Source: Desulfobaccales bacterium (GTDB taxonomy: Bacteria > Desulfobacterota > Desulfobaccia > Desulfobaccales > 0-14-0-80-60-11). Taken from it: a DNA stretch of 64,000 bases. The DNA is taken from the NCBI GenBank assembly GCA_052139855.1, contig JBKQVS010000045.1, positions 657-64,656 of the forward strand, read 5' to 3'. Made by a program: the position numbers and the translations under genes. Below the pieces are notes generated by a model, which worked only from the letters and a program-made list of their open reading frames with translations, was not told the origin of the DNA and did no database searches. Below, in pieces: positions 1 through 33,187 of this stretch (positions are counted from its first letter, which is position 1; the number at the start of each line of letters is the position of its first letter).

Positions 1-408
1 GCACAAAACCACAAGGAATTCCAGTAATGAGGATAAATGAAGGAATCAAGGGTAATGCATGGGGAATTTTCGAGGGTAACACCTTGCAAGGTTCTCTGAT
101 TCCCTTATGTGAATGCAAGTTTAAACACCAATTTTGAGCGAACCCTTACCTTATCCTTCACACGCTTTTTAGGAACATTTTGAGGCATTTTAAGTGCGAT
201 TTACATTATAAAAAGGGCTTCAAAACTGATACCTCCACCCCTTGCCCAATCCACAAAAATCAACGAAACCCATTCAGAGGAATTTCTTTCCGGTATACCT
301 CTTGGTTATCCTGTTGACATACCCTCCATCTTTGTGACATAAGGGAATCATCTTGCAGTACCCAACCCCTGCCACCAGGGGAATATGATGCTTGATAAAC
401 TTGATGAC
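1..408 (-). mobile_element. Edge of a second low-GC inserted element that continues beyond the window start. It is non-coding and related, in inverted orientation, to 5680-5965.
   Basis: Composition switches at about 400-408, exactly where the YihY-like frame loses family resemblance. Positions 188-215 are the reverse complement of 5811-5838 (27/28 nt). Interrupted similarity flanks this core on both sides, for example TGCATTCACATAAGGGAATCAGAGAACCTTGCA versus TGCATTCATAGCATGGAATGAGAACTTGCA. Confidence 0.5.
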
Positions 409-747
409 CAGGATGCCGATGAGGGTGGCCGCAAGGCCGGTGCCCGGCCGGTAGGCGGCCTCGATCATCGTTCTCACGGCGCCGGCCCCTTGGGCCCCGA
501 TCAAATCCTGGGCCCGCCGCAAGATTTCCACCTGGACGGTGGTCTTGCCAAGGATAACGCCGAAGATGGCGATGACGATGATGAGGAGGGGGGCCATGGA
601 AAAAGTGGTATAGAAGGCCAGGGCGGCGCCCAGGGTTGGGGCATTGTCTCGCCGCCAGGCCCGGTAGGTCTCGGACAACAAGTCCCAGACCGGTCTCAAA
701 GGGGGCCGTCTTTTGCGGGGGGCCGGCGCCGGGGTTTCGTGAGGCAT
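400..747 (-). pseudogene. YihY/BrkB-family membrane protein, 3'-truncated, with only about 115 N-terminal codons left
   Basis: In ORF 274..747 the first ~114 aa (LGAALAFYTTFSMAPLLIIVIAIFGVILG...) look like YihY family N-termini. The rest is encoded by low-GC DNA and lacks the remaining transmembrane segments of a ~290-aa family member. Confidence 0.6.
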
Positions 748-831
748 GGCGGAGTTACCTCTGCGGCTACCAGGGGTGATGAGTCCGGTCCTGCTCCTGG
801 GAAGAAGTTGGGGCCGGCGGCAGTTTTGGCA

Positions 832-1125
832 TCAATCGCCGATGATTTTCACCAGGACGCGTTTGCGGCGGCCGCCGTCGAACTCGCCGTAAAAAATCTG
901 TTCCCACGGCCCGAAATCGAGCCGGCCGCGGGTAACGGCCACCACCACCTCCCGGCCCATGATTTGCCGCTTCAGATGGGCATCGGCGTTGTCCTCGCCG
1001 ACGTTGTGGCGATACCGGGAGACCGGGGCGTGGGGGGCCAGGCCTTCCAGCCAGACTTCGTAGTCGTGATGCAGCCCGGACTCATCGTCATTGATGAAAA
1101 CGCTGGCGGTGATGTGCATGGCGTT
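832..1125 (-). pseudogene. yjbQ: YjbQ/UPF0047 family protein, C-terminal 95 codons (distal half of a split gene)
   Basis: ORF 832..1119 ([30 protein letters not shown]...) matches the central and C-terminal part of YjbQ-type proteins. The missing N-terminus is found at 7431..7562. Confidence 0.8.
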
Positions 1126-2806
1126 CTTGATTCATATCTTCTTTAACTTTCTCCGGTGCTGCAAGGTTTGGATTTTCTTTTAAAATTGTTGTCCCAATTT
1201 TGCTTAAAATCTCTTTGTCTCCCTCTTTGTCCTCTCTAAAGCGGTCTGAAAAAGTGAATGCATCTCCACTTCTCGCAAGAAGAACTCCTTCTATTGTTCC
1301 TAACTTACCATAAGCGTTAAATTCGTATCGCTTAGGCTTGCCCTTAAGCTCTTGTATGTAAATCCCATATTTTCTTCCCATTTCATCTTTACCACCAAAA
1401 AGCAGATTGACAAGTTTTTTCTTTTCCTCAAAAGGTAATTTTTCAAAAGGGACGCCTGACCCTAAGTAGTTTATTCTCTGTAGAAATTTTACATACATAA
1501 TCCGCTTAATCTCTATATCTGTTTCAGTCGGTAATGTATTCAATCGTAATTGGATTGAATCAATTTCTTCCTTTAACCCCTTGGCATTGTTTTCTAATTC
1601 CTTCCATTTTGGTTTAATTCTTTCAAAGATTTTGTCACAATCATTATCATCTTTACACTTGTCTATCAGCGAAATGAAAGTATTGATTCTTTTCTGCGTA
1701 GCCTTAAGTTCGTCTTGTTTAGATTCCAGCTTTATCCTAAGGTCTTCGGCCACCTTCCCAAGTGGGTTTCCATTAAAAACAGACTCCCTCAAACTATCTT
1801 TGTTGCCAAGCACCAAAAATAATTCATCTAAAACAGCCTTTTCCAGTGCATCTGCATTTATTTGGTATCTACGTTTACGTCCTTGATATGGCTTATAATA
1901 TCTCGTTCCCCTCTGATTCTTTGTTCCCGTTAATGCATAGCCAGTATCTTTATCAAATATCAAACGTGAGAAAAGATATTGATATTTTTGCGTCTTATGG
2001 TCATAGGTTCTTCGAGCTTCACATTTTCTCCTAATTGCGATAATTGTCTCATTAGAAAGAAGGGGAGGAATGTTTAATGTATGTGTTTCATCAAGCTTAA
2101 AGTTTTTATCTTTAAAATGAATAGACCATTTGTCACCGCAACGATAGCACATTGTTTTATGGAGATTAGTACCATTCATTCCAAATCGTTCACCAAGCTG
2201 TTTCCATGAGTAATCTTCTTCAAGGTAGAGTCTGGCAGCTTCATTTATTATGGCTTGCTTCTTTTCGTCAATTTTCCAAGTCAGGGTAACCTTATTCCAA
2301 ATCCGGCCATAGGGCTTCTTTCCACAAGACGGGCGACCATCTTTAGCCCGTTTAATCCTGTTAATGGCCGACTTATATTTTTGCTGTTTTGCAAAGAGTT
2401 CTTGAATTTCAACACCCATACCAAGGATAAAGCAGTGGTCCGGATTATATAAGTTCATCTCCATAGTTCCATTAAAAAACCTTATCTCTAACTTCTGCAA
2501 AGTCTCTATATACTGTTTTGATTTCGAATTATCCCGTGACCATCTTGATAAATCAGCAACCATGATTGCTTCAAAATTCTTTTGTTCAGCGTCCTGCATT
2601 AGCTTGTCTAATATTTTTCGCTCATAGTCTTGTGTGGCATGTTCTTGTCCCTCATACCATTTGTAAATTTTGCCATTAAGACTTTGTATCGCCTGGGAAA
2701 GTTGCTCCTTTTGAGTTCGCAAGCTTTCACCTTGTTTGGCCTGTTGCTCTGTTGATACACGAATTAGGGGGGCAAACACCAAGCCTGTATTATCTTCCTG
2801 TTTCAT
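1088..2806 (-). CDS. Large serine recombinase (integrase)
   Basis: 572-aa ORF with an N-terminal resolvase catalytic motif (LIRVSTEQQ), a recombinase/zinc-ribbon-like region (CYRCGDKW) and a long K/E-rich coiled-coil-like stretch. The last 8 codons and the stop lie in host DNA beyond the junction repeat. Confidence 0.85.
1115..1125. repeat. attL core (TGCATGGCGTT)
   Basis: Identical 11-mer at 7429-7439, located at the host/island composition boundary. Confidence 0.8.
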
Positions 2807-2850
2807 TGAGTTATCCCCTTAAATTGGTCAATTGTTGACATAGCTTAAGG

Positions 2851-3183
2851 TTATTTTGATTCGCCATCTTTCAGAGGAAACCTCTTTGCATTAGTAAGAT
2901 ACTCTTTCAAATCATCTTCATCTACCAAAATCTTTTTACCTAACTTTATGATAGGGAAGGGAACCAGCTTGCGATTTATCCAACTTCTGAAAGTGCCTTG
3001 AGTTATTCTCAAGACTTTAGAGACTTCTTCTACTGTCAAATATCTTTTATTTAGGATGGAATCATCATTCACAGCTTTTGCCAAATCCTTTAGAGGGGTT
3101 TCACGGTCTGATTTTCCAATCTTATCGCCTAACATATCTATAAGCTCGCCATTAGAATGTTTCTTATACTTGTTGGATACCAT
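2851..3183 (-). CDS. Excisionase/MerR-superfamily HTH DNA-binding protein (possible recombination directionality factor)
   Basis: 110-aa ORF. The segment LTVEEVSKVLRITQGTFRSWINRKLVPFPIIKLGKKILV resembles excisionase-family HTH domains. It overlaps 3138..3815 by 46 nt. An alternative ATG at 3135 lies 3 nt after the upstream stop. Confidence 0.6.
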   Translation of the reverse strand: MVSNKYKKHSNGELIDMLGDKIGKSDRETPLKDLAKAVNDDSILNKRYLTVEEVSKVLRITQGTFRSWINRKLVPFPIIKLGKKILVDEDDLKEYLTNAKRFPLKDGESK

Positions 3184-3815
3184 TTGACCAATCCCCGTTT
3201 GGTTTTAACCCCACGACTCTTAAATTCTTCGGCAATGGCTTGAAGCGTATACCCCCTGTCCCTCAATTCCTTGGCTAATCTGATAACCTCTTGTTCTGGC
3301 AAGAAGGGGGTCAATTGGGTACCTTCTACCTTGTAGCCGAACGGAATATGGCCTACGTGTTCACCTTTCTCAATTTTCCTTTGCAAAGCATCACTTGTTC
3401 TCTCTCCTATCATACCCCGTTCCATCTCCGCAATTCCGGCAATGAGGGTGAAGAAGAATTTTCCCAATGGGGATTTGGTATCCAAACGCTCATTGATGCT
3501 ATGGAATCCAATCCCATAATTATCAAGCTCCTTCGTGACCTCTAAGGCGTCTATGGTAGAGCGGAAAGCTCTATCAAGCTTATATACCACCAGGGCTTCT
3601 ATTTCCTTATTCCGAGCCATGTCAAGAATCTTCTTTATCCCTGGCCGATTCAGGTTTTTTGCCGACAAACCTTCATCTGCCACAATCTCTATAAGCACAA
3701 AATCGTTTAGTTCACAGTAAGCTTTAATCTTGGCTCCTTGGTTTTCCAGGCTAACCCCTTCCCTGGCCTGTTCTTCTGTGCTCACCCTAACATACCCCAC
3801 AGCTTTTTTCATCAA
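3138..3815 (-). CDS. Small serine recombinase (resolvase/invertase type)
   Basis: 225-aa ORF with the VGYVRVSTEEQ catalytic-serine motif, a resolvase N-terminal domain pattern and a C-terminal HTH-like tail. Confidence 0.85.
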   Translation of the reverse strand: MMKKAVGYVRVSTEEQAREGVSLENQGAKIKAYCELNDFVLIEIVADEGLSAKNLNRPGIKKILDMARNKEIEALVVYKLDRAFRSTIDALEVTKELDNYGIGFHSINERLDTKSPLGKFFFTLIAGIAEMERGMIGERTSDALQRKIEKGEHVGHIPFGYKVEGTQLTPFLPEQEVIRLAKELRDRGYTLQAIAEEFKSRGVKTKRGLVKWYPTSIRNILMASL

Positions 3816-3853
3816 ATTACTCCTTAGCTTGGTTTACCTATTTATATAGCAGT

Positions 3854-3882
3854 TTGCGTTGCATGTCAAGCTTTTTTATAAT
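3854..3882 (+). promoter_or_regulatory. Sigma70-like promoter candidate (TTGCGT-17 nt-TATAAT)
   Basis: TTGCGT at 3854-3859, a 17-nt spacer and TATAAT at 3877-3882, pointing toward 4029..4563. Confidence 0.3.
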
Positions 3883-4028
3883 TAAGGAACGTTTATTATA
3901 AATGACCTTGTTAATGAGGCGTATGCTGAACTGAAAATGTCAGTTTTAGTATCGGATTTAGTTAACTTTTTATGCTATAAGGGGATTATGCGGCTTCCCT
4001 TGTCAAACTAAACATTTGGCTTAAAAAA

Positions 4029-4256
4029 ATGACAGACCCTTTCAAGCCCTATATCCAATCCCTGCAAGCTGATTTGGCGCGGTGCAACGCCTCAGAGCAT
4101 ACCCACAGGCCCGACCTCAAGATTCTCCTGGAATCCTGGGGGCAACGCCTCTCGGCCACCAATGAACCCCGGCAGGTTACCGATTGTGGTAACCCCGATA
4201 TTTTCTATTGGATGGTTCCATTTTTGACAATGGCAAAGAATTTGGGATTTTCTTGA
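4029..4256 (+). pseudogene. Remnant of the N-terminus of a type IIG/N6-adenine DNA methyltransferase-like gene
   Basis: 75-aa ORF. The stretch CNASEHTHRPDLKILLESWGQRLSATNEPRQVTDCGNPDI resembles, from memory, the conserved N-terminal block (ATEHTYRPAL...NEPKR..CGAPDF) of large methyltransferase/restriction fusions. It is truncated after ~60 aa and locally higher in GC than the rest of the island. Confidence 0.35.
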
Positions 4257-4302
4257 CATTACCCATAGGCTCATGGTGAATTAGGAATGATAAGGAAGAA
4301 TT

Positions 4303-4563
4303 ATGGGGGAGTTACTTGAGTGGTTGTTCAAAGTCGAAAACAAAAAAACTTGCCGTTTCATTGGCGTTATTTTGGTCTTGACGCCACTTTTATTCTTTTT
4401 CGGTGGAGGATTTCAAGGAGCTACTCTTGAAGGACCTATCTTTACTACTGGTGGACTTAGAGCGGTCTTCATTACAATTATGTCGGTTATGTTCATCATG
4501 GGGATTATGCTTATTTTGGTTGGATTTAGTAGACGTGAAAAAAATGGGGCCTTCAAGAAGTAG
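4303..4563 (+). CDS. Small membrane protein, unknown function
   Basis: 86-aa ORF with two clear hydrophobic segments (FIGVILVLTPLLFFFGGG and AVFITIMSVMFIMGIMLILVGF). Confidence 0.5.
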   Translation: MGELLEWLFKVENKKTCRFIGVILVLTPLLFFFGGGFQGATLEGPIFTTGGLRAVFITIMSVMFIMGIMLILVGFSRREKNGAFKK

Positions 4564-4600
4564 CGTGGGTAGATACTAAGTCCCCTTGCTCAGGTTCCTT

Positions 4601-4644
4601 GCCACTTGCTCGATGGGTATGTCTTAGAGCTGCTATTTTATGTC
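4601..4644. repeat. 44-bp imperfect direct repeat, copy A (partner at 5009-5052)
   Basis: 37/44 identical by hand alignment. The minus strand reads a decayed mini-ORF (MKRDIK*). Confidence 0.6.
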
Positions 4645-4720
4645 TCGCTTCATGTTTTTATCATTCTGCTATCCGAGAATGTTATGAGCAACGATTCGCA
4701 GCCTGGTTTTACTTGATATC

Positions 4721-4957
4721 CTAACATCTTATATACAATGATATAACCACTAATAATCCAGTAAGTAGGGCTAATACCCAAGTTGCCATTGCAAGAGTCC
4801 ATGTTTTATTTACAAGTTGTTCAGTATATCTTAATTTTAAGATATCATTAGCCACCATATAACCGATATGGTTCGGTGCTTCCATTCTCAACATAAATTC
4901 CATTATTTCTTGTACTGAACTTGTTAATAACATTTTCCTATCTTCTTCCTTAAACAT
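4721..4957 (-). CDS. Small tail-anchored membrane protein, unknown function
   Basis: 78-aa ORF with a C-terminal hydrophobic helix (WTLAMATWVLALLTGLLVVISLYI). Confidence 0.45.
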   Translation of the reverse strand: MFKEEDRKMLLTSSVQEIMEFMLRMEAPNHIGYMVANDILKLRYTEQLVNKTWTLAMATWVLALLTGLLVVISLYIRC

Positions 4958-5008
4958 TTTTAGCCTCCTAAATCTGGATAAACGGCTCAGCCCAGGCCCA
5001 GCCGCTCG

Positions 5009-5052
5009 GCCACCTGGTCAATGGGTATGTTTTTGAGCTGGTCTTTTATGTC
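5009..5052. repeat. 44-bp imperfect direct repeat, copy B
   Basis: Partner of 4601-4644. It lies within a minus-strand mini-ORF at 4987..5055 (MDIKDQLKNIPIDQVAERLGLG*). Confidence 0.6.
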
Positions 5053-5065
5053 CATATGTCACCAC

Positions 5066-5572
5066 TTATTCCTTTTTCTGTTCTTGTTCTTTCATCATTT
5101 TATGATAGGCAAAAGTGGCTATCATTCCCCTAAAAATTGAAAAATTTATGAATAATGCCACAATCACAACACTTAGATAACCAAAACGGAAACCTTGATA
5201 ATTCTTATTTAATCCTAAAATTATATTGGCAATACCTTCAAAAAAAACATGCACAAACATAATTGTGATACAAGTTCTACTCTTTTTATAAATGCCAAAT
5301 GTCAATAATGATAATATGACTATATCTACTATATCCACTGTACTTGCCATATTACTAACTAACTTGTAATATACTTCACGGCCATTTAGAAACAAAACAA
5401 ATAATGCAACACAAAATGCACCAGTTATAGGGTTGATAGTGATATGATTGGTATCAGTTAAGTGGATTGATTTTTTACAATGAGGACACCAATAACCATG
5501 AACTGTTTTCAATTTGTAACCATCATAATTACCACAGTCTGGACATTTGATATTGTTGTCAGCTTTTTTCAT
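5066..5572 (-). CDS. Zinc-ribbon membrane protein, unknown function
   Basis: 168-aa ORF with N-terminal CPDC...17 aa...CPHC and about four hydrophobic helices. Confidence 0.55.
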   Translation of the reverse strand: MKKADNNIKCPDCGNYDGYKLKTVHGYWCPHCKKSIHLTDTNHITINPITGAFCVALFVLFLNGREVYYKLVSNMASTVDIVDIVILSLLTFGIYKKSRTCITIMFVHVFFEGIANIILGLNKNYQGFRFGYLSVVIVALFINFSIFRGMIATFAYHKMMKEQEQKKE

Positions 5573-5679
5573 TTATACCGCTCTCCTTAAAACTGCATAA
5601 ACCTTTCAGCAGCCGCCGGGAGGTGGTTAAGGTTGCGGGGACAAAAAAACCGAACTGCACCCTCAGGGCATCCCGGCTC

Positions 5680-5965
5680 TTATCATTCAATCAACATAAT
5701 CGCTCCCCTCCTGGTGAGTGGGGCAGCTTTTAGAATAATTCCCTTATGGCATAAAGTGAGATGGTCTGTCAATAAGTTTACAAGAGGCATGGAGGTGAGA
5801 AATCCAGTCGCTTTTTACAATGTAAATCGCACTTAAAACCACTCAGAACGGCTTTTTCGGTTTAGGGAAGGGTAAGGGTAAGGGTAGAGGGAAAACGTTT
5901 AAAATCAGCCCCTCAAACGTGCATTCATAGCATGGAATGAGAACTTGCATTTTAATTGTGAGAAT
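5680..5965 (+). repeat. Non-coding module homologous, in inverted orientation, to 1-408
   Basis: Positions 5811-5838 (CTTTTTACAATGTAAATCGCACTTAAAA) match the reverse complement of 188-215 at 27/28 nt. The flanks match with indels. It contains the GGTAAG tandem tract at 5865-5890. Confidence 0.55.
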
Positions 5966-6157
5966 TCGAAAAAGGCTCATTTGTTTCTATGGGAATTGTG
6001 ACAATTGGATAGAGTTAAATGCTTAACTTATTTGAATCATTGGGGTATTCCCCCCCCCTATGGCAGAACGATGGCAAGATATAAATTGCCATTAAATTAT
6101 GACAATTGTTTATAGCATGGCGCACAGTCTAAAGCTGTAATGCCAATTGTGACAATA
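5954..6157. promoter_or_regulatory. Four copies of a 13-bp near-palindrome AATTGTGACAATT (iteron or operator candidates)
   Basis: Copies at 5954-5966 (AATTGTGAGAATT), 5994-6006 (AATTGTGACAATT), 6095-6107 (AATTATGACAATT) and 6145-6157 (AATTGTGACAATA), with start-to-start spacings of 40, 101 and 50 bp. Confidence 0.5.
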
Positions 6158-6242
6158 AAAATCATTTCAGTTAGCTACAACTAATTGAAATAACCCCTTT
6201 TTATGGGGAGGGGAGGCGTTCAACCACATTATCAACTTGTAA

Positions 6243-7241
6243 TCACAATGAATCAGGCATGATATATTCTTTACCAGTGGTAGGAATAAACGATGTCTTT
6301 GATAGCTTATGCATAAATGCATTTGTAAGTAGTTCATGTTCGACAATAAATCGCCCATAATTAGGCACTCCCCTATCTTTGTCTTTTAGTGATTCAATCT
6401 GCTTGATAAATTCGGATTCATATTCTCTATGAGTAATACCCCTAACCCACTGGTGAATAGTTTGTTTGATTATATTTCCATACCCTGGCCTCCTCTGGTT
6501 AACACGTTTAATTTCCTGTTTGTTCTTTCTTACAATGTAGTTTGTCAGCATGTTTGAATCAATATAGGCAAATATGAAGAATTGCTTTAAATTCAGTGCA
6601 TCTATATTACTTAAAGGCAGTGACAAACCTAACCGTTTGATTACCCTACGGCTTAGCACAAGCTCCATTCTGACAAACTCAGGATTATCTTCTGGTTTAA
6701 GATAAGTTCTTGTTCCTTTAGTAGCTGTTCTTATATCAGTTGTATAAAATGTATCTTCAATGTTGAATGACTTTTGTTTCTGGTATCTGAGGTACAATTT
6801 GTTGTCAAGAAATTCCTGAAAGTCTTCAAGATTTTCTGTGTAAAAATCAAAGGTAAGCTCTACTTGACTTAATTTGTGAAAGATGGAAAACTTGCTGAAA
6901 TAGCTATGGAATAAGTGTAATATCTCTTTGCTTGGGTCATGAATCTCTATTCTTGTTGTTGGTATCAACTCACCTTTAAATCTCATGTCATAGAACAGTT
7001 GAATGCTAATATCATTGTCACAATACGTCTTAGTGCGATTAAATTTACCTTTTGACAGAGGATTCTTTTTTGTCCGTTTAAACCCATTGGCACTTAATAG
7101 GTCACAAATTGGGTTTAGAAACCTAAGGTGAATATATGAAAGGGAAAGCCAATCAATACTTGCCCTAAGGGTAAAATCAGGAATGTAAGAATCGTCTGCA
7201 TTATTATAGGAGGTAAGTGGACTAAAGACTTCAAGGGTCAT
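6243..7241 (-). CDS. Putative Rep_trans/MOB_T-like replication initiator or relaxase
   Basis: 332-aa ORF. The motif pattern SIDWLSLSY ... VELTFDFY ... RTYLKPEDNPEFVRMELVLSRR resembles the blocks of rolling-circle Rep_trans proteins (iDwL, RiDlaiD, iY.K....R.El). This is recognised by eye only. Confidence 0.35.
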   Translation of the reverse strand: MTLEVFSPLTSYNNADDSYIPDFTLRASIDWLSLSYIHLRFLNPICDLLSANGFKRTKKNPLSKGKFNRTKTYCDNDISIQLFYDMRFKGELIPTTRIEIHDPSKEILHLFHSYFSKFSIFHKLSQVELTFDFYTENLEDFQEFLDNKLYLRYQKQKSFNIEDTFYTTDIRTATKGTRTYLKPEDNPEFVRMELVLSRRVIKRLGLSLPLSNIDALNLKQFFIFAYIDSNMLTNYIVRKNKQEIKRVNQRRPGYGNIIKQTIHQWVRGITHREYESEFIKQIESLKDKDRGVPNYGRFIVEHELLTNAFMHKLSKTSFIPTTGKEYIMPDSL

Positions 7242-7428
7242 AAGGTCTTAAATCTCCTTCAAATTTTAGATTGAATGAATGTTAACGGAAAAAGGCCAAA
7301 GTGTACATAATTTTTCTGGATAGGGAATGGGTGCAAGGATTATCTTTGCTCTATCTGCCAAAAGGCTGTCTTGCGTATACTTCCCCGTTCAGAATAAAGG
7401 GGATTGGTTTTGAAGGTGTAAGAATATT

Positions 7429-7439
7429 TGCATGGCGTT
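7429..7439. repeat. attR core (TGCATGGCGTT)
   Basis: Identical to 1115-1125. Confidence 0.8.
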
Positions 7440-7562
7440 GACCAGGACCAGGCCTTCGGTGACGCCGCTATCGGCGAGGCATTGCTCCACCTGGGGGGTG
7501 ATATTGATGAAGGCCCGGCGGCCGGGGACTTGAAACCAGAGTTCCTGGCGAAAGCTTTTCAT
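7429..7562 (-). pseudogene. yjbQ: YjbQ/UPF0047 family protein, N-terminal 44 codons (proximal half of the split gene)
   Basis: Minus-strand ATG at 7562. The translation [44 protein letters not shown] ends at the ATG inside the junction repeat and then runs into island DNA. Confidence 0.8.
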
Positions 7563-7745
7563 AGGTTTGGGGGTGGCTCCCGGTTTTGTTCAAAGGTGCC
7601 ACAGGACCGCGCCGGTGTCAAGGGGAAGGCAGGGGAAGGGCAGGGCAAAGCCCACAGGGGAAGCGGCGCTGATGAGGGGCCGAGTCAGGGAAACCCGACC
7701 CCGGGGCCGGATACTGGGAGCAGCAACAGATTACCTCCGCTCCGG

Positions 7746-7767
7746 CCCTCCCCCCCGAGGGGGAGGG
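7746..7767. repeat. C-tract/G-tract hairpin (REP-like)
   Basis: CCCTCCCCC-CCGA-GGGGGAGGG, a 9-bp perfect stem. Confidence 0.5.
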
Positions 7768-7828
7768 GGCAGAGGGAAGAATCTGCTCCAACAAGGCCCT
7801 GGTGAAAGATTATTTTTCCAGGGAGGTT

Positions 7829-8104
7829 TTACTTTTTTGGCGCTCCGGCCGGGGTGGGTTCCGGGGTCACCCCTTCATCCTGCATTTTTTTCAGGTACTT
7901 TTCCGGGTCTTTCTTGAAGTCTTTATCGCAGCCCTCGCAGCAAAAATAGATGCGTTTGCCCTGGTAATCGACATAGGTGCTCTTGTCAATTTTGTCGCCC
8001 CGGACCGGGCAGACCGTCTGGGGTTTGGGGTCGGCGGCCCAGAGGCTCCCGGCGGCAAAGGCAGCCAGGGCCAGGGCCAGGATTACGGCTTGGAATTTTC
8101 TCAC
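7829..8104 (-). CDS. Secreted YHS/TRASH-type metal-binding domain protein
   Basis: 91-aa ORF with a signal peptide followed by CPVRG...YFCCEGC, as in YHS domains. Confidence 0.7.
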   Translation of the reverse strand: MRKFQAVILALALAAFAAGSLWAADPKPQTVCPVRGDKIDKSTYVDYQGKRIYFCCEGCDKDFKKDPEKYLKKMQDEGVTPEPTPAGAPKK

Positions 8105-8191
8105 ACGACTCTCCTTATGGGGGTTTTCACAGGTTCACATTGTCTAGATAAAATATTGTTCATGGATGGCCTGATTGTCAAGGGCATGATG

Positions 8192-8674
8192 CTAAGGCCC
8201 GGTCTCGCCGATTTTCTGGATGACCCATTTGCCGCCTTCCTGCCTCCAGGTGACATAGGTGTTGCCGGAATCGCTCTGGGGGCAGACAAAGGTATTGGGG
8301 CCTTTCTGCTTCCACATTTCGCCTTGGCGGAAATTGATCCGGAAGGTGTAGCCGTTGGGTTCATTAAAGAAAAAACCGTACCAGCCCTTCTGGGCGGCAA
8401 AATCTTTGGCCATCACCTCGTATTTGACCATCCGGTTGGTGACAACCTTCCCGGTGCCAATCTCATAACCCAGGTATTGCCAGGGGGAGGTTGTCGAGAA
8501 GCTGGCGAGGATGGCCGATTTATCTTTTCGGACTACGGCGTCAATGAATGAGCGCATGGCCTGGTCAGGGCCCTGGTCAGCCGCGGCGGCGCTATAATTC
8601 CAGGCGCAAACGGACAGGGTTAGGATCAGCGCCGATAGTATTCCCCATTGAACCATCCGGTTTTTTCCGAGCAT
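8192..8674 (-). CDS. Secreted hypothetical protein
   Basis: Track ORF 8192..8905 overlaps the upstream gene. The internal ATG at 8674 gives 160 aa with an N-terminal signal-like segment (WGILSALILTLSVCAW). Confidence 0.55.
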   Translation of the reverse strand: MLGKNRMVQWGILSALILTLSVCAWNYSAAAADQGPDQAMRSFIDAVVRKDKSAILASFSTTSPWQYLGYEIGTGKVVTNRMVKYEVMAKDFAAQKGWYGFFFNEPNGYTFRINFRQGEMWKQKGPNTFVCPQSDSGNTYVTWRQEGGKWVIQKIGETGP

Positions 8675-8720
8675 GTCTCGTACCTCCGTGATTTTGGTGA
8701 GTGGTTGGCGATTGGCAAAA

Positions 8721-10469
8721 TTAGTCTTTGGGCGGTTCCTCCGAATCCTTGAGGTCCAGGGCGCCGGATTTTTTGAGGGCGGCGAGGCCGCCCTGGAGGT
8801 TGACGGCGTTACAGAGGCCGGCGGTTTCGAGTTGGCGCAGGGCCTCGTAGGAGCGGACGCCGGAGTTGCAGACCACCAGAAGGCGCTTATCCGGGGGGAT
8901 TTCATTGAGGCGGTGGTTCAGGGTCTCCTGGGGGATATTGAGCCAGCGCGGCCCAAAGAGGTCGACGTAGGGGGCGGCGTTGGCCGCGCCCCGGACGTCC
9001 AGGCAGATGGCGTCGCCGGCCTTATCGGTCAAGAAGCACTGTTCGAAGTCGGCGACCTCGATGGTGCGGTTGTAGCCGTCCAGGATGTTTTCCAGGGTGT
9101 TGGCCACGGCGTTGACGATATCGAGGGCGGCGGCAAAGGGCGGGGCGTAGGCCACTTCCAGGTTGGACAGGTCTTGTAAGCTGGCCTTGAAGGGGAGCAG
9201 GGCGGCGATGCTGTTGATGCGGCCCACCAGGGCGTCGCCGTTGTGGCTGAGGCCCTGGGCCCCGAGAAGGCGCCGGGTGGCTTTATCCGCCACCAGGTGG
9301 AGATACATGAGGTCCTGGGTGGGGTAGAAGTGGGCCCGGTCGGCCTGGATCACCAGGGCGCCGGCGGCATCAAAGCCGGCGGCCGCGGCCTGGGCCAGGC
9401 TTAAGCCGGCGCCGGCGATGGCCAGGTCAAAGGTCTTCAGGGTGAAGGAGCCGACGATGCCGTTGAAGGTGGCGGCGCCTCCGGCCAGGTTGGTGCCGAT
9501 GACCCGGCCCTGGCGGTTGGCCAAGGAGCCGGAGGGAAAATAAACGGGTTGGCCGGTGATGAGGTGCAGGTTGTCGATGCAGTCGCCACCGGCGTAAATG
9601 CGGGGGTCGGAGGTCTGGAAGCGCGGGTTGACCGTGATGCCGCCGGTGGGAGAGACCAGCAGGCCGGCCTGGCGGGCCAACTCAGTATTGGGGACGGCGC
9701 CCACCGCGGTAATGACCAGGTCGGCGGGTAAGATTTCTTGTCCGGTGACTACTTCCAGGGCATGATCGTCTCCGGCGTGAGGCCGGATTTCCCGGACGGT
9801 TGCCGACAGGTGGAGGGTGACGCCCTGGTCCCGGAGATGTTTGGCGACCATGCGGGCCAGACCGAGCTCCAGGACGCCGGGAAGGACCTGGGGGGTGACT
9901 TCCACTAAGGCGGTCTCCAGGCCCCAGAGGTCGCTGACGGCCTCGGCCATTTCGACGCCGATGGCGCCGGCGCCGATGATGACGACGCGGCCCACCTCAC
10001 CTTTGGCGATGGCTTCCCGGACGGCCATGGCGGCGGGGAGATTCGAGACGTTCAGGACGCCGGGGAGGCCGGCCCCGGGGACGGGCAGGGGGCGGGGACG
10101 GCTGCCGGTGGCCAGGACCAGGTGGTCATAAGGGAGATTTTCCTCCCGGCCGGTGACCAGATCAAGGACCCGCACCTGTTGGTGGGGGCGATCAATGGCC
10201 AGGGCCCGGGTGCGGATTTTGACCCGGACGTCCTTGGCGTTTTCAAAAAATTCGGGAGTGCGGAGCATGTGGAAGCTGGTGCTCATCAACTCCTTGATAT
10301 CGCTGAGATCGCCGGAGATATAGTAGGGGATGCCGCAGCCGCCGTAGGAGATGTATTCGCCCTGATCCACCATGGTGACCTCAAAGTCGGGGCGGAGACG
10401 TTTGAGGCGGCAGGCCACCTTGGGACCCAGGGCTACGGCCCCGATGATGATGACGCGTTTCGGTTTCAT
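8721..10469 (-). CDS. FAD-dependent pyridine nucleotide-disulfide oxidoreductase (CoA-disulfide reductase/NADH oxidase-like) fused to a C-terminal rhodanese domain
   Basis: 582 aa with GxGxxG at the N-terminus (IIIGAVALG), a redox Cys context (YGGCGIPYY), a second dinucleotide fold (VVIIGAGAIGVE) and a rhodanese active-site loop (VVCNSGVRS). Confidence 0.8.
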   Translation of the reverse strand: MKPKRVIIIGAVALGPKVACRLKRLRPDFEVTMVDQGEYISYGGCGIPYYISGDLSDIKELMSTSFHMLRTPEFFENAKDVRVKIRTRALAIDRPHQQVRVLDLVTGREENLPYDHLVLATGSRPRPLPVPGAGLPGVLNVSNLPAAMAVREAIAKGEVGRVVIIGAGAIGVEMAEAVSDLWGLETALVEVTPQVLPGVLELGLARMVAKHLRDQGVTLHLSATVREIRPHAGDDHALEVVTGQEILPADLVITAVGAVPNTELARQAGLLVSPTGGITVNPRFQTSDPRIYAGGDCIDNLHLITGQPVYFPSGSLANRQGRVIGTNLAGGAATFNGIVGSFTLKTFDLAIAGAGLSLAQAAAAGFDAAGALVIQADRAHFYPTQDLMYLHLVADKATRRLLGAQGLSHNGDALVGRINSIAALLPFKASLQDLSNLEVAYAPPFAAALDIVNAVANTLENILDGYNRTIEVADFEQCFLTDKAGDAICLDVRGAANAAPYVDLFGPRWLNIPQETLNHRLNEIPPDKRLLVVCNSGVRSYEALRQLETAGLCNAVNLQGGLAALKKSGALDLKDSEEPPKD

Positions 10470-10538
10470 GCGTTTCCTCTGGAGAGCTGAGTTTGGGGCG
10501 TAAGTGGGGCGCAGGGCGCACCCGAGAAAATATTGTCA

Positions 10539-10570
10539 CGCCAAGGCGCAAAGGCGCCAAGGTGCAAAGA
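10539..10570. repeat. Tandem octamers (CGCCAAGG CGCAAAGG CGCCAAGG TGCAAAGA)
   Basis: Four consecutive 8-mers read directly, in the spacer between the CDF gene stop and the oxidoreductase start. Confidence 0.7.
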
Positions 10571-10584
10571 AGTCATAAATCAGA

Positions 10585-11610
10585 TTATTTCTCCGGGGCA
10601 TCGGGCTGGTCCGGGGTTTTATGGGGGCCGTCGCAGGTCAGGGTGTCGGTGCGCCAGAGGCGCTGCATGATCGTGCCGGCGAGGCGATGCTCACAGGGCT
10701 CGTGGCCGCAGATGGGGCACTCCGGGTCCATGCAGGGGTCGGCATGGATGAGGATGTCCGCCTGGCCCTCATAGTGATCGTTGAGGATTTTTTCCAGTTG
10801 TTTGACCTCGGCGTGGCTGGCTTCCAGCAAGAGATCCCGGGGCAGAATGAGGTGGAAGTCGATGAAGACGCGGGTGCCGGCCCGGCGGGCCCGGAGCTGA
10901 TGGATGTCAATCCACATGGGGCGGCGGTTATCGGAGATAACCCGACAGATTTCTTCCAGGAGTTGGGGGTCGGAGGTGTCCATGAGGCCGGAGGCGGCCT
11001 GCCATACCAGCCGACCCCCGGTGACCAGGATATTGAGGCCCACCAGGATGGCGACGGCGCCGTCCAGCCAGTTCCAGCCGGTGAAATAAACGCCCACCAG
11101 GCCCAGGACGACCCCAACGGTGGTGATGACGTCGGTGAGGACGTGTTTGCCGTCGGCGATGAGGACGATGGATTTGGTGCGCCGGCCGACGATGACCAGG
11201 ATGGCGCCCAGGATGAGGTTCACCACAGCGGCGGCCAGGATAAGGAGCATGCCCTTTTCCAGTGCGGGGATGGCCTGGGGGTGGAAGAGACGGGGCCAGG
11301 CCTCGTAGAAGATCCCCAGGGCCGCCAGGACGATAAGGGCGCCTTCAAAACCGGCGGAGAAATACTCGACCTTGCCGTGGCCGTAAGGGTGGGTGGGATC
11401 GGGGCGCTTGGCGGCGATGATGATGCTGCCCAGGGCGAAGCCGGCCGCCACCACGTTGATGATGGATTCCAGGGCATCGGAGAGGATGGCGGCGGAATCG
11501 GTGAGATAGAAGGCGATAAATTTTACGGCCATCAAGCCCGCGCCGATGAGCAGGGAGGCGGAGATGGCCAGGAGGTGATTTTTGAGGTTAGGGTTTTTTG
11601 GGGAGTGCAT
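10585..11610 (-). CDS. Cation diffusion facilitator (CDF) family transporter with a Cys/His-rich C-terminal tail
   Basis: 341 aa with six hydrophobic helices, the HGHGKVEY and DxxxD-type CDF motifs, and the tail CMDPECPICGHEPCEH. Confidence 0.85.
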   Translation of the reverse strand: MHSPKNPNLKNHLLAISASLLIGAGLMAVKFIAFYLTDSAAILSDALESIINVVAAGFALGSIIIAAKRPDPTHPYGHGKVEYFSAGFEGALIVLAALGIFYEAWPRLFHPQAIPALEKGMLLILAAAVVNLILGAILVIVGRRTKSIVLIADGKHVLTDVITTVGVVLGLVGVYFTGWNWLDGAVAILVGLNILVTGGRLVWQAASGLMDTSDPQLLEEICRVISDNRRPMWIDIHQLRARRAGTRVFIDFHLILPRDLLLEASHAEVKQLEKILNDHYEGQADILIHADPCMDPECPICGHEPCEHRLAGTIMQRLWRTDTLTCDGPHKTPDQPDAPEK

Positions 11611-11803
11611 GGATTGGCAATAGACCTGATTTTATAAGTCCGACTATTTCATGAATATACTTTTCCTTCATGGCAATCAAGGCCAATATGCTTATTCTCC
11701 GAGGAAAAGAATGGGTATGTTGACTCTCGGCCATCTGGTGGATAAAGTTAAATATATTGCCTGGATGATAAATTGATCGGATCAATGCGACGGGGTGGGG
11801 CTG

Positions 11804-11998
11804 ATGAAAATATCGATAGAGTTGTCCCAGGAGCAGGCCAGAATTTTTCAAAGCACGGCGGAACGGCTGGGTTTAAACCCTGAAGAATTGGCCCGGGCTG
11901 GCCTGGCGGATATGTTGGGAGTCCTGCAGGATGATTTCCAGAAAGCCGCAACCTATGTCCTGAATAAAAACCAGGAACTCTATCGGCGGCTTAGTTGA
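11804..11998 (+). CDS. Putative antitoxin of the Doc toxin
   Basis: 64 aa from the ATG at 11804 (the track ORF starts at GTG 11795). Its stop overlaps the start of the Fic/Doc gene. Confidence 0.55.
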   Translation: MKISIELSQEQARIFQSTAERLGLNPEELARAGLADMLGVLQDDFQKAATYVLNKNQELYRRLS

Positions 11999-12387
11999 TG
12001 CGATACTTGACCCTTGGAGAGGTCATAGAGTTGCACCGCCGAATTATCCAGCAGACGGGCGGTGCATCCGGAGTGCGCAACCTTGCCGCGTTGGAGTCGG
12101 CCGTGGCGCAGCCTCGCATGACCTTTGAGGGACAAGACCTTTATCCGACTATCGAGGATAAAGCCGCGGCGCTGGCATTCTTTATTGTCCAGAACCATCC
12201 GTATCTAGATGGAAACAAGCGTTGCGGTCATGCCGCGATGGAAACTTTTTTGGTGCTGAATGGCAAGGAAATAGATGCCCTGGTGGACGAAGTCGAGGAG
12301 ATTATTCTGGAAATAGCCTCGGGAAAATTCTCTCTGAAGAATTTTGGAAACTGGTTAGCAGGACATGTCCGCAGTTTAATATCTTGA
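11998..12387 (+). CDS. doc: Fic/Doc family toxin (death-on-curing)
   Basis: Contains the Fic motif HPYLDGNKRCG. About 129 aa, typical of Doc toxins, with an ATGA-type overlap with the upstream small ORF. Confidence 0.85.
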   Translation: MRYLTLGEVIELHRRIIQQTGGASGVRNLAALESAVAQPRMTFEGQDLYPTIEDKAAALAFFIVQNHPYLDGNKRCGHAAMETFLVLNGKEIDALVDEVEEIILEIASGKFSLKNFGNWLAGHVRSLIS

Positions 12388-12426
12388 GGCTGGCAGAATG
12401 TTACGGTGACGCCTCAAGGTAAGCAG

Positions 12427-12750
12427 CTATTTGTGGAAATGGATGAAGATATTCTCCCGTTCAAAGGTTCCCTTCAAGAAGATTTCCTGGTGGTCCTGGG
12501 AAGAGAAGGTCTGCAGGTCGAAGTCCTCGTCAGGAAACCAATCCGTCTGAAAGACTAAACCGGAATCGTCTTGCCGGATGGTGACGTGGCCTTCATCGGC
12601 GACCTCAAGGGGCCAGGCGAGATAGAGGCTGAAGCTCAAGGAGGTGGGGGTGCGGCTGATACTGGCCTTCTTGGCCTCCCAGATTTCATACTTGGGGTCG
12701 CCGAACCCGGAGAGCCAATAGAGGGTGATGTAGTTGAGGCCGTCAAACAT
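12427..12750 (-). CDS. Hypothetical protein
   Basis: 107-aa ORF 34 nt downstream of sdhB on the same strand. No motif recognised, and GC is lower than in its neighbours. Confidence 0.35.
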   Translation of the reverse strand: MFDGLNYITLYWLSGFGDPKYEIWEAKKASISRTPTSLSFSLYLAWPLEVADEGHVTIRQDDSGLVFQTDWFPDEDFDLQTFSSQDHQEIFLKGTFERENIFIHFHK

Positions 12751-31990: not shown

Positions 31991-33187
31991 ATGCCTGAAT
32001 ATCTCGACAGCACCTACGATGTGGCGGCCAACACCCACACTGCCAAGGAACAGTCCTTTGCCGTAGTGGAGGTTGGGGACGCCAAACAGCCGGAGGTGTT
32101 CCACCCGCAAGTCAAGATTATGCGCTGGGATAATGAGTGCAATTTCTCGGCCCGGTTGGTGCATAAGGAAGCCAGCCCTAAAGTCGCGCTGGTGGCTGAC
32201 AAAATTCAATGGGTAGGTGATGCAGTTGAGGCTCACTTCTACGAGATCGGAGAGGGGAAGGAAGGCGGCGGTTATGAATTTGAAATTATCCTGAAGAAGG
32301 CACCCAAGAGCAACGTCATCAGCATGACCCTCCAGACAAAGGGCCTGGACTTTTTTTACCAGCCCGAATTGACCCAGGAGGAGATTGACCATGGGGAAAT
32401 TCGGCCCGACAAGGTAATTGGTTCCTACGCCGTCTATCACCAGACGATGGCTGGCGATCATACCGGGCTGGGCGGCAAGAACTATCTTGCGGGTAAGGCG
32501 TTTCACATCTTCCGCCCCAGGATTGAGGATGCTGAGGGGAATTGGGTTTGGGGCGATCTTAATATTGATGATAAGCAGGGGTTGCTCACCGTCACTATTC
32601 CCCAGGACTTTCTAGATAAAGCCGTCTATCCGGTGCGTCACGCAGCGGGATTGGAGTTTGGGTATCATGTGGTGGGAGGCTCTCAAAATAGCACTGGAAA
32701 TCAGACTTGTTTATTCAAAGCAACGGCAGGTGGTTCAGCACCAGGAACCCCGGCTTCATCGGGGATTATAACCAAACTCACCTTATACTGTAAAATATCC
32801 CAAAACAATCCTGTTTTTAATCCAGGTGTTTATAATAATTCAAGTGATCTTCCGTCAACAAAGGTTGCGGGAATAGACTCTGGTGGCAGTCAAATTCCAG
32901 TTAATTACGCATGGCTGGATTCCCCCATATCGGCAACAATAATAGCTGGAACCCAATACTGGTTGGGGTTTTCAAATCATACTGGCAATCTTTATTATAC
33001 TTTCGATACTATTACCAATATACAACAATATGCGAATGGACTTGCCGCTTGGCCCGATACTTGGACTGGAAACGCCTGGAATAATCTCGCAAGCCTCTAT
33101 GCCACCTATACAGAATCAGGCGGAAGCGCCGCCAAGGTTCCTTTTTGGCTGTTTAATCAAGCTGCATTAGGACAAGGAGTAGCATGA
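31991..33187 (+). CDS. Phage structural protein with a compositionally foreign C-terminal domain
   Basis: 398-aa ORF. The 3' third (about 32690-33120) drops to 19/60 and 24/60 GC in hand-counted lines. Confidence 0.5.
   Translation: MPEYLDSTYDVAANTHTAKEQSFAVVEVGDAKQPEVFHPQVKIMRWDNECNFSARLVHKEASPKVALVADKIQWVGDAVEAHFYEIGEGKEGGGYEFEIILKKAPKSNVISMTLQTKGLDFFYQPELTQEEIDHGEIRPDKVIGSYAVYHQTMAGDHTGLGGKNYLAGKAFHIFRPRIEDAEGNWVWGDLNIDDKQGLLTVTIPQDFLDKAVYPVRHAAGLEFGYHVVGGSQNSTGNQTCLFKATAGGSAPGTPASSGIITKLTLYCKISQNNPVFNPGVYNNSSDLPSTKVAGIDSGGSQIPVNYAWLDSPISATIIAGTQYWLGFSNHTGNLYYTFDTITNIQQYANGLAAWPDTWTGNAWNNLASLYATYTESGGSAAKVPFWLFNQAALGQGVA

Follow-up and report, generated by a model that had tools for sequence, protein, structure and literature searches.

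The DNA analysed here (the window) is a stretch of 64,000 nucleotides from a metagenome-assembled genome (MAG) of a Desulfobaccales bacterium. Near its start, two low-GC stretches (~37-40%) are set within host DNA of ~65% GC. The longer of these, at ~1115-7439, is an island that splits yjbQ, and the shorter, at positions 1-402, adjoins a truncated yihY. Further dips in GC were seen at ~11550-12450 (0.44-0.47; a Fic gene and a small neighbouring ORF) and at ~32000-33000 (0.50).

A serine recombinase island in yjbQ

The yjbQ island and its main features are as follows:

1115-7439, minus strand: yjbQ island of 6.3 kb (copy 1), with the 11-bp direct repeat TGCATGGCGTT at either end
1088-2806, minus strand: large serine recombinase, 572 aa (PF00239, E 1.8e-14), the 3' end of the gene entering the att core
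2851-3183, minus strand: HTH_17 protein, excisionase-like
3138-3815, minus strand: small serine recombinase, 225 aa, with only the first half of a 'Recombinase' domain
5066-5572, minus strand: 168-aa zinc-ribbon/membrane protein, cargo (among small cargo ORFs)
5573-6242, minus strand: non-coding stretch of 670 nt
5640-5950, minus strand: non-coding module, copy 1, internal, flanked by the 168-aa cargo gene and by the iteron-like repeats that follow the Rep-like gene
6243-7241, minus strand: Rep_trans-like protein, 332 aa, so named from a fold match and lacking a Pfam match

The host gene yjbQ (minus strand) is divided into a C-terminal part at 832-1119 and an N-terminal part at 7431-7562, and exact copies of the 11-bp repeat lie at 1115-1125 and 7429-7439. 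When the flanks are joined, the YjbQ reading frame (PF01894) is recovered, with 21 residues across the join. The yjbQ island thus displays the features of a large serine recombinase island, i.e. an N-terminal resolvase catalytic domain in the recombinase, a core repeated at both ends and a target gene that can be reconstructed, and it is a bona fide insertion. Judged from its sequence, it resembles a small integrative, possibly mobilizable, element. The large serine recombinase ORF crosses the left repeat, its last ~11 codons being host-encoded. A 44-nt direct repeat (84% identity, 4601-4644 and 5009-5052) lies either side of a 78-aa ORF in the island.

For the 332-aa protein, no Pfam family, Rep_trans (PF02486) included, was matched by sequence at E <= 0.01. 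An AlphaFold (AF2) model of the protein has a mean pLDDT of 68.6. When the model was compared to the PDB, the five top matches were all RepDE/RepD (4cij, 4cwe; E 9e-7 to 8e-4, probability 1.0), albeit with TM scores of only 0.32-0.44, and these Rep_trans rolling-circle initiators were the sole significant matches. The predicted fold suggests the island could replicate or be mobilized after excision. Just downstream of the Rep-like gene are four ATTGTGACAAT-like (iteron-like) repeats at 5954-6150 and a GGGG(G)AATACCCC palindrome at ~6043-6060. Both are conserved in two of the relatives described below (L008 and L025), and together they constitute a candidate origin.

The low-GC DNA beside yihY belongs to the same family

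The features around the start of the window are:

1-402, plus strand (functional orientation): copy 2 of the island-family module, non-coding and diverged, running off the window start
85-215, plus strand: conserved block with TGAATGCAAGTTTAAAC..ATTTT..CCCTTACC repeats, ending in a 28-nt core (188-215), in all 7 aligned copies
313-342, plus strand: promoter-like TTGACA-18 nt-CATAAG, facing the yihY junction
366-387, plus strand: hairpin CCCCTG-CCAC-CAGGGG, its 3' arm forming a Shine-Dalgarno-like AGGGGA that is followed by an ATG at 385
402-403: junction of element DNA and yihY codon 115, identity to intact-yihY contigs stopping exactly at 403
403-429, plus strand: host yihY stretch GATGACCAGGATGCCGATGAGGGTG, resembling (by in-register local alignment) the sequence that follows the module in relatives (island 5652-5685)
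403-747, minus strand: 5' part of yihY (YihY/BrkB family), residues 1-115, with Pfam PF03631 over residues 33-115

No long ORF was found in 1-402 in any frame. A sequence-only reading of this DNA had proposed that the AT-rich stretch from 1 to ~400 is homologous, in inverted orientation, to a module internal to the island (~5680-5965), and our analysis bears this out. The reverse complement of 1-402 is colinear with island positions 5690-5949 at 65-71% identity, and three inverted repeat matches follow one another in colinear order (305-351 with 5735-5781, 178-215 with 5811-5848 and 95-122 with 5915-5942). A MAFFT alignment of the reverse complement of 1-420 with 5660-6110 gave a mean column identity of 71%, with a 53-nt insertion in copy 2. 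Alignment of 1-408 to the island, which the same reading had put forward as a check, yielded significant similarity: blastn against the whole window matched 85-215 to 5949-5811 (E 3.5e-9) and 282-396 to 5803-5690 (E 6.9e-8). No third copy of the module was found in the 64 kb by blastn of 1-402.

The 28-nt core is identical at 27 of its 28 positions between 188-215 (minus) and 5811-5838 (plus), again as first read, and occurs exactly twice in the window; it was matched in none of 100 shuffles (chance expectation 0). The junction-side hairpin and ATTCCCTTATG strings quoted in the sequence-only reading are both found as written, and the module is indeed located at a junction in copy 2 and internally in copy 1. 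Both sequences are AT-rich and their overall identity is only 65-71%, as might be seen for a chance or low-complexity likeness of AT-rich DNA. However, the three colinear blocks and their blastn E values, the failure of shuffled sequence to return the core and the presence of the module in six more independent contigs with identical block order exclude chance similarity. The DNA at 1-402 and the yjbQ island belong to one element family.

A mosaic family with a fixed backbone

A look-up with the recombinase protein retrieved seven public contigs, including L001 (218 kb, from a Desulfobaccales-containing metagenome assembly) and several Logan contigs. Relatives of the island were collected via homologues of the 332-aa protein and two DNA/protein scans, which gave L008, L009, L010, L011 (with L019 and L021-L024), L020 and L025. 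A DNA scan with the core pattern returned 0 matches in genome, metagenome and viral collections. A second DNA pattern matched only L011-type islands and L020, with no viral match, and BLAST of 1-402 gave no match among plasmids and phages.

Comparison of these sequences reveals a mosaic family that shares a backbone of a Rep-like gene, iteron-like repeats, the module, cargo, a small serine recombinase, HTH_17 and a large serine recombinase. The canonical ends of the family lie upstream of the Rep-like gene and directly after the large serine recombinase gene. The module is positioned downstream of the Rep_trans-like gene and the iteron-like repeats, and variable cargo follows it. In both L009 (1480-1960 and 3170-3490) and L011 (5708-5886 and 7708-7932), two diverged module copies occur in direct orientation, each ahead of different cargo; modules A and B of L009 are 55% identical in block and core. 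The closest relative of copy 2 is the module of the JGI contig L020 (82% identity over 143-374), which precedes a 228-aa membrane-protein gene, while module B of L009 is 75-79% identical to copy 2. The relatives part from one another at differing points, up to ~60 nt past the TTGACA..ATAAG motif.

L011 (JBEKIG010000029.1) contains an 8.7-kb variant island at ~4066-12726, located between a glnB-like gene and amt and with an ATGCA core at its end. Its gene order is as in the yjbQ island, and its large serine recombinase is 566 aa. The small serine recombinase and HTH_17 genes, which overlap by 46 nt in the window, are kept as a pair (224 aa and 112 aa), which may act as a resolvase, an invertase or a directionality factor. 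The L011 contig has 63% GC and is binned as a 'Nitrososphaeria archaeon' MAG; it looks bacterial and hence has probably been mis-binned. Five JGI contigs (L019, L021-L024) carry the same type of island. Insertion sites seen for the family are yjbQ (the window, L001, L007 and the contig of P0003) and glnB-amt (L011), and none of the relatives found is inserted in yihY. A tyrosine-integrase fragment in L010 indicates the mosaic family may carry other recombination genes.

Make-up of the shared module

Two parts can be distinguished in the module. The first runs from CCCTTACC/GGGTAAG repeats to the 28-nt core and is present in 7/7 of the copies aligned. The second follows a variable insert and consists of TTGACA, an 18-nt variable spacer, (C/G)ATAAG, a CCCC...(A)GGGG hairpin with a ribosome-binding-site-like 3' arm, and a short leader. 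Folded as single-stranded DNA, block and core form less structure than shuffled versions do, whichever strand is taken (z +0.1 to +1.8), which suggests that they may be duplex DNA bound by protein, and not a structured RNA or single-strand origin. A MOBQ-like nic site in the core TAAGTGCG is a purely speculative idea.

TTGACA and ATAAG are invariant, with a varying spacer, in copy 2, the island, L007, both modules of L009 (L009A and L009B), L011B, L020 and L025, and this conservation pattern points to a putative promoter function. A consensus promoter scan did not call TTGACA-18-CATAAG; the scanner misses the motif because the second hexamer lacks a final T. Equivalent CCCC...AGGAGGGG hairpins are present in the island, L007, L009A, L009B and L025. 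The leader ends in a terminator-like hairpin and T7 run in the island (at ~5640-5680), L007 and L009A, and the same conserved leader stretch is seen in L025, where it is cut by the contig end.

A structured RNA or single-strand origin was considered and rejected: covariance models from Rfam gave no match at E <= 1 in window positions 1-9000, block and core fold worse than shuffles, and the leader, with its terminator-like hairpin, folds no better than shuffled sequence (z -0.75) and is devoid of covariation support. A conserved small peptide downstream of the hairpin was likewise rejected, the reading frames differing among the island, L009A and L025. We read the module as a putative regulatory or leader region, reused ahead of variable cargo, and not as an element end.

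In the window, element DNA joins yihY at a non-canonical position

The yihY ORF (274-747, minus strand) has a Virul_fac_BrkB match confined to residues 33-115, beyond which 42 element-encoded codons lead to a stop at 274. The truncated product is 157 aa, compared to 299 aa for the full gene in L001. The abrupt switch of the YihY-like frame into AT-rich DNA at ~400, noted in the sequence-only reading, is hereby placed at 402/403 by comparison with contigs that carry intact yihY; GC drops from ~65% to ~40% left of 403, and the BrkB match ends at residue 115. At the break, the window reads ...GGCATCCTGGTCATC|AAGTTTATC and the intact gene ...GGCATCCTGGTCATC|TTAATCGGC; the longer reads are ...GGCATCCTGGTCATC|AAGTTTATCAAG for the window and ...GGCATCCTGGTCATC|TTAATCGGCTCC for intact yihY. 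By blastn, the rest of the 64-kb window contains neither the 3' part of yihY nor the genes downstream of it; in L001, Pro_isomerase and cytidine-deaminase-domain genes are located past yihY. Evidence for copy 2 spans this one junction and 402 nt; neither a second recombinase nor a second junction was found in the 402 nt visible or in scans of the collections.

The break lies ~18 nt past the ATG that follows the hairpin, i.e. inside the canonical family architecture and not at either of its ends. The element continues past this point in the island, L007, L009 (A and B), L011B, L020 and L025. Hence, yihY is better described as fused to a fragment or rearranged family member than as interrupted by a second element, and it would be wrong to class the junction as another ordinary insertion. 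The proposal that two adjacent host genes are each interrupted by one element family therefore stands as regards the common family and the insertion in yjbQ, but is weakened as regards yihY, where the junction is not a canonical end and the gene is intact in four other contigs (see below).

Host sequence directly beyond the break is not unlike what follows the module elsewhere. GATGACCAGGATGCCGATGAGGGTG matches, at ~20/25 nt, the GATrrGCCGGGrTGCC-CTGAGGGTG sequence that is conserved among relatives, where it makes up the 5' arm of the terminator-like hairpin. Copy 2 aligns with the island, L009A and L025 beyond 403, as far as 417-427. The in-register score at the junction is 12 for the island (P = 0.002) and 13 for L009A (P = 0.001), as compared to 20,000 random host 35-mers. 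In an unanchored search of host sequence, the similarity is not significant and falls within noise. The island, L009A and L025 do not represent three independent tests, since they are homologous to each other. The longest exact words common to yihY and the known relatives at this site are 7-8 nt.

Several other accounts of the junction were discarded. A crossover shifted to the right, with the C at 424 derived from the element, is contradicted by the same C in L007, where yihY is intact; it is an ordinary synonymous polymorphism. yihY does not appear to be a pseudo-attB of the large serine recombinase of the island, given that its similarity to the yjbQ attB is out of register (P 0.04-0.1) and that attP is unlike the end of copy 2. 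An inversion or duplication within the window was rejected, as neither the 3' part of yihY nor the genes after it occur elsewhere in the 64 kb, and 65-71% identity excludes a recent duplication. By reasoning only, un-inverting 403-5680 provides no simpler ancestor.

yihY is intact in sister assemblies

In 4/4 public contigs that cross the site (L001, L002, L004 and the more distant L007), all from the same Desulfobaccales population as the window, yihY is uninterrupted. The first three contain the same island in yjbQ and match the window from 403 rightward, bar a few SNPs that include one synonymous change at 424. L007 represents a more distant strain with an island that is 94% identical, and here too yihY is intact across the site. 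Look-ups with the recombinase and with a 160-aa protein retrieved intact-yihY contigs only. In exact-product look-ups of public records, there was no trace of the truncated 157-aa YihY, of a 253-aa antisense ORF that starts in the junction or of a window-specific 341-aa neighbour allele, and the yihY junction of the window is absent from all collections searched.

The sequence-only reading had named a yihY that simply continues as the outcome that would count against it. This is the case for the sister assemblies, while the window's own contig reads truncated at 402/403. With the site empty in close relatives, the copy 2 junction would represent a gain and not ancestral sequence. The intact gene in four contigs, together with window-specific products that are nowhere on record, indicates that the event is either strain-specific or a chimeric contig end.

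Four Logan contigs, assembled from short reads of sister samples (L016, L017, L018 and L005), end near the island/yihY region; L016 ends within the N-terminal part of yjbQ and L005 at window position 454. These ends are consistent with strain variation at the locus in the population. When the window is compared to L001/L002, 9 of the 12 differences in 12.4 kb cluster at 10484-10503 and 10797-10864, in or upstream of a cation-efflux gene, which suggests a locally recombined or hypervariable patch.

Origin of the yihY junction

We propose that what can be seen at 1-402 is the margin of another, diverged stretch of DNA that stems from the low-GC integrative island family. More element DNA would lie to the left of the window, in the form of a second family member or a remnant that is probably truncated or rearranged. 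Its module would have become joined to yihY codon 115 exactly where the terminator-like hairpin would otherwise begin, through a non-canonical recombination aided by short imperfect homology. This might have come about by deletion or rearrangement of a nearby second element, or by an illegitimate or secondary-site crossover. As a result, yihY function would be lost in this strain only, and the outward promoter-like motif would point antisense into yihY. We assign a probability of roughly 0.5 to such a fusion, in which short homology assisted the joining of a second family member that is probably truncated or rearranged. Non-canonical, homology-aided recombination is the most likely route because the join coincides with the start of the hairpin and yihY resembles the hairpin arm.

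A less likely account is an assembly artefact: yihY would in truth be intact, and the stub, part of a related element located elsewhere in the genome or in the community, would have been attached to it through an assembler error or a chimeric read. Against this, the longest exact words shared at the site are far under any assembler k-mer, and chance alone would hardly place a chimeric join in register with the similarity patch (P about 0.001-0.002). Such an artefact would fit the uninterrupted gene in all four public contigs, the absence of the 157-aa product, 253-aa antisense ORF and 341-aa allele from any record, a short low-GC stub at the very edge of the window, which starts at a contig end, and a junction away from the canonical element end. 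A contig that ends a few hundred bases into a variable mobile element is, however, also the usual signature of a genuine insertion, and related elements are demonstrably diverse in the same samples. Canonical integration of a complete second element by a large serine recombinase is less likely than non-canonical recombination, and unlikely in itself. It would place an attP just downstream of the module, with yihY as target, and would turn the yihY-like stretch of the island, L009A and L025 into an unused attP. The target is in register with an internal sequence conserved in relatives, this stretch is more conserved than its surroundings between the island and L009A, and a mosaic family can carry other recombination genes, as the L010 fragment illustrates. 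The same stretch is nevertheless more simply read as the arm of a terminator-like hairpin in the relatives, and the similarity is restricted to one side of the crossover. Furthermore, the sites seen for relatives are yjbQ and glnB-amt but not yihY, resemblance of the yihY site to the yjbQ attB is within chance (P 0.04-0.1), and the island attP is unlike the copy 2 end.

Duplicated modules in L009 and L011, clustered mosaic breakpoints and in-register yihY similarity would all be explained by an integron-like cassette system, a very improbable reading overall. The module would then double as a recombination site (GCCGGGrTGCC-yTGAGGGTGCAG) for the small serine recombinase, which would exchange cargo cassettes from one module copy to another and now and then enter similar-looking chromosomal sites, yihY among them. 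Two family members ~690 bp apart (402 to 1115) in inverted orientation are an unlikely coincidence, for which none of these readings accounts.

Comparison with known systems

No other assembly supports the yihY junction, and it is to be treated with caution. We regard it as an ordinary strain-specific mobile-element junction or, given that yihY is intact in other assemblies of the same bacterium, possibly as an assembly artefact. If real, it means that one island family has struck twice within ~0.7 kb in a single Desulfobaccales strain and has knocked out yihY, and small islands that encode a large serine recombinase and a Rep-like protein would be active and recombining in peat/wetland populations. 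The current understanding of integrative elements is left unchallenged. The more useful by-product is the description of the family itself, with its fixed backbone, swappable cargo slots and at least two target sites (yjbQ and glnB-amt).

Integrative and mobilizable elements (IMEs) and small islands that pair a serine recombinase with a Rep_trans-family (MOBT-type) relaxase/replicase have been reviewed (PMC5704250), and IMEs that use their own Rep_trans-family relaxase have been described (PMC7563843); these elements are largely from streptococci and staphylococci. The island family is similar in being small (6.3-8.7 kb), low in GC within a high-GC host and variable in cargo, with the large serine recombinase gene at one end, directly beside the att site, a short terminal direct repeat and insertion in a conserved host gene. 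A candidate Rep_trans-like protein, so assigned by predicted fold and with adjacent repeats, would add to the likeness. In contrast, the host of the island is represented by a Desulfobaccales MAG, the 332-aa protein has no Pfam match and only a moderate fold match, and the family possesses an extra small serine recombinase and HTH_17 gene as well as a repeated non-coding module that finds no match in Rfam, plasmid or phage records.

Large serine recombinases and their att sites have been surveyed (PMC10083194). As in islands and prophages that split host genes by this route, attL and attR of the yjbQ island share a short common core and the recombinase gene lies beside the att site. The yihY junction differs in being inside the canonical architecture and in lacking an att-like relation to the attP/attB of the island.

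Mosaic 'moron'-type cargo slots, found in phages, ICEs and satellites, have a conserved regulatory region before variable cargo. The cargo position in the window is occupied by a chromosomal gene read antisense, i.e. by a host junction and not by a cassette, unlike such slots. In the relatives, however, the likeness is evident, with a promoter-like/leader module followed by unrelated genes and breakpoints clustered just downstream of it.
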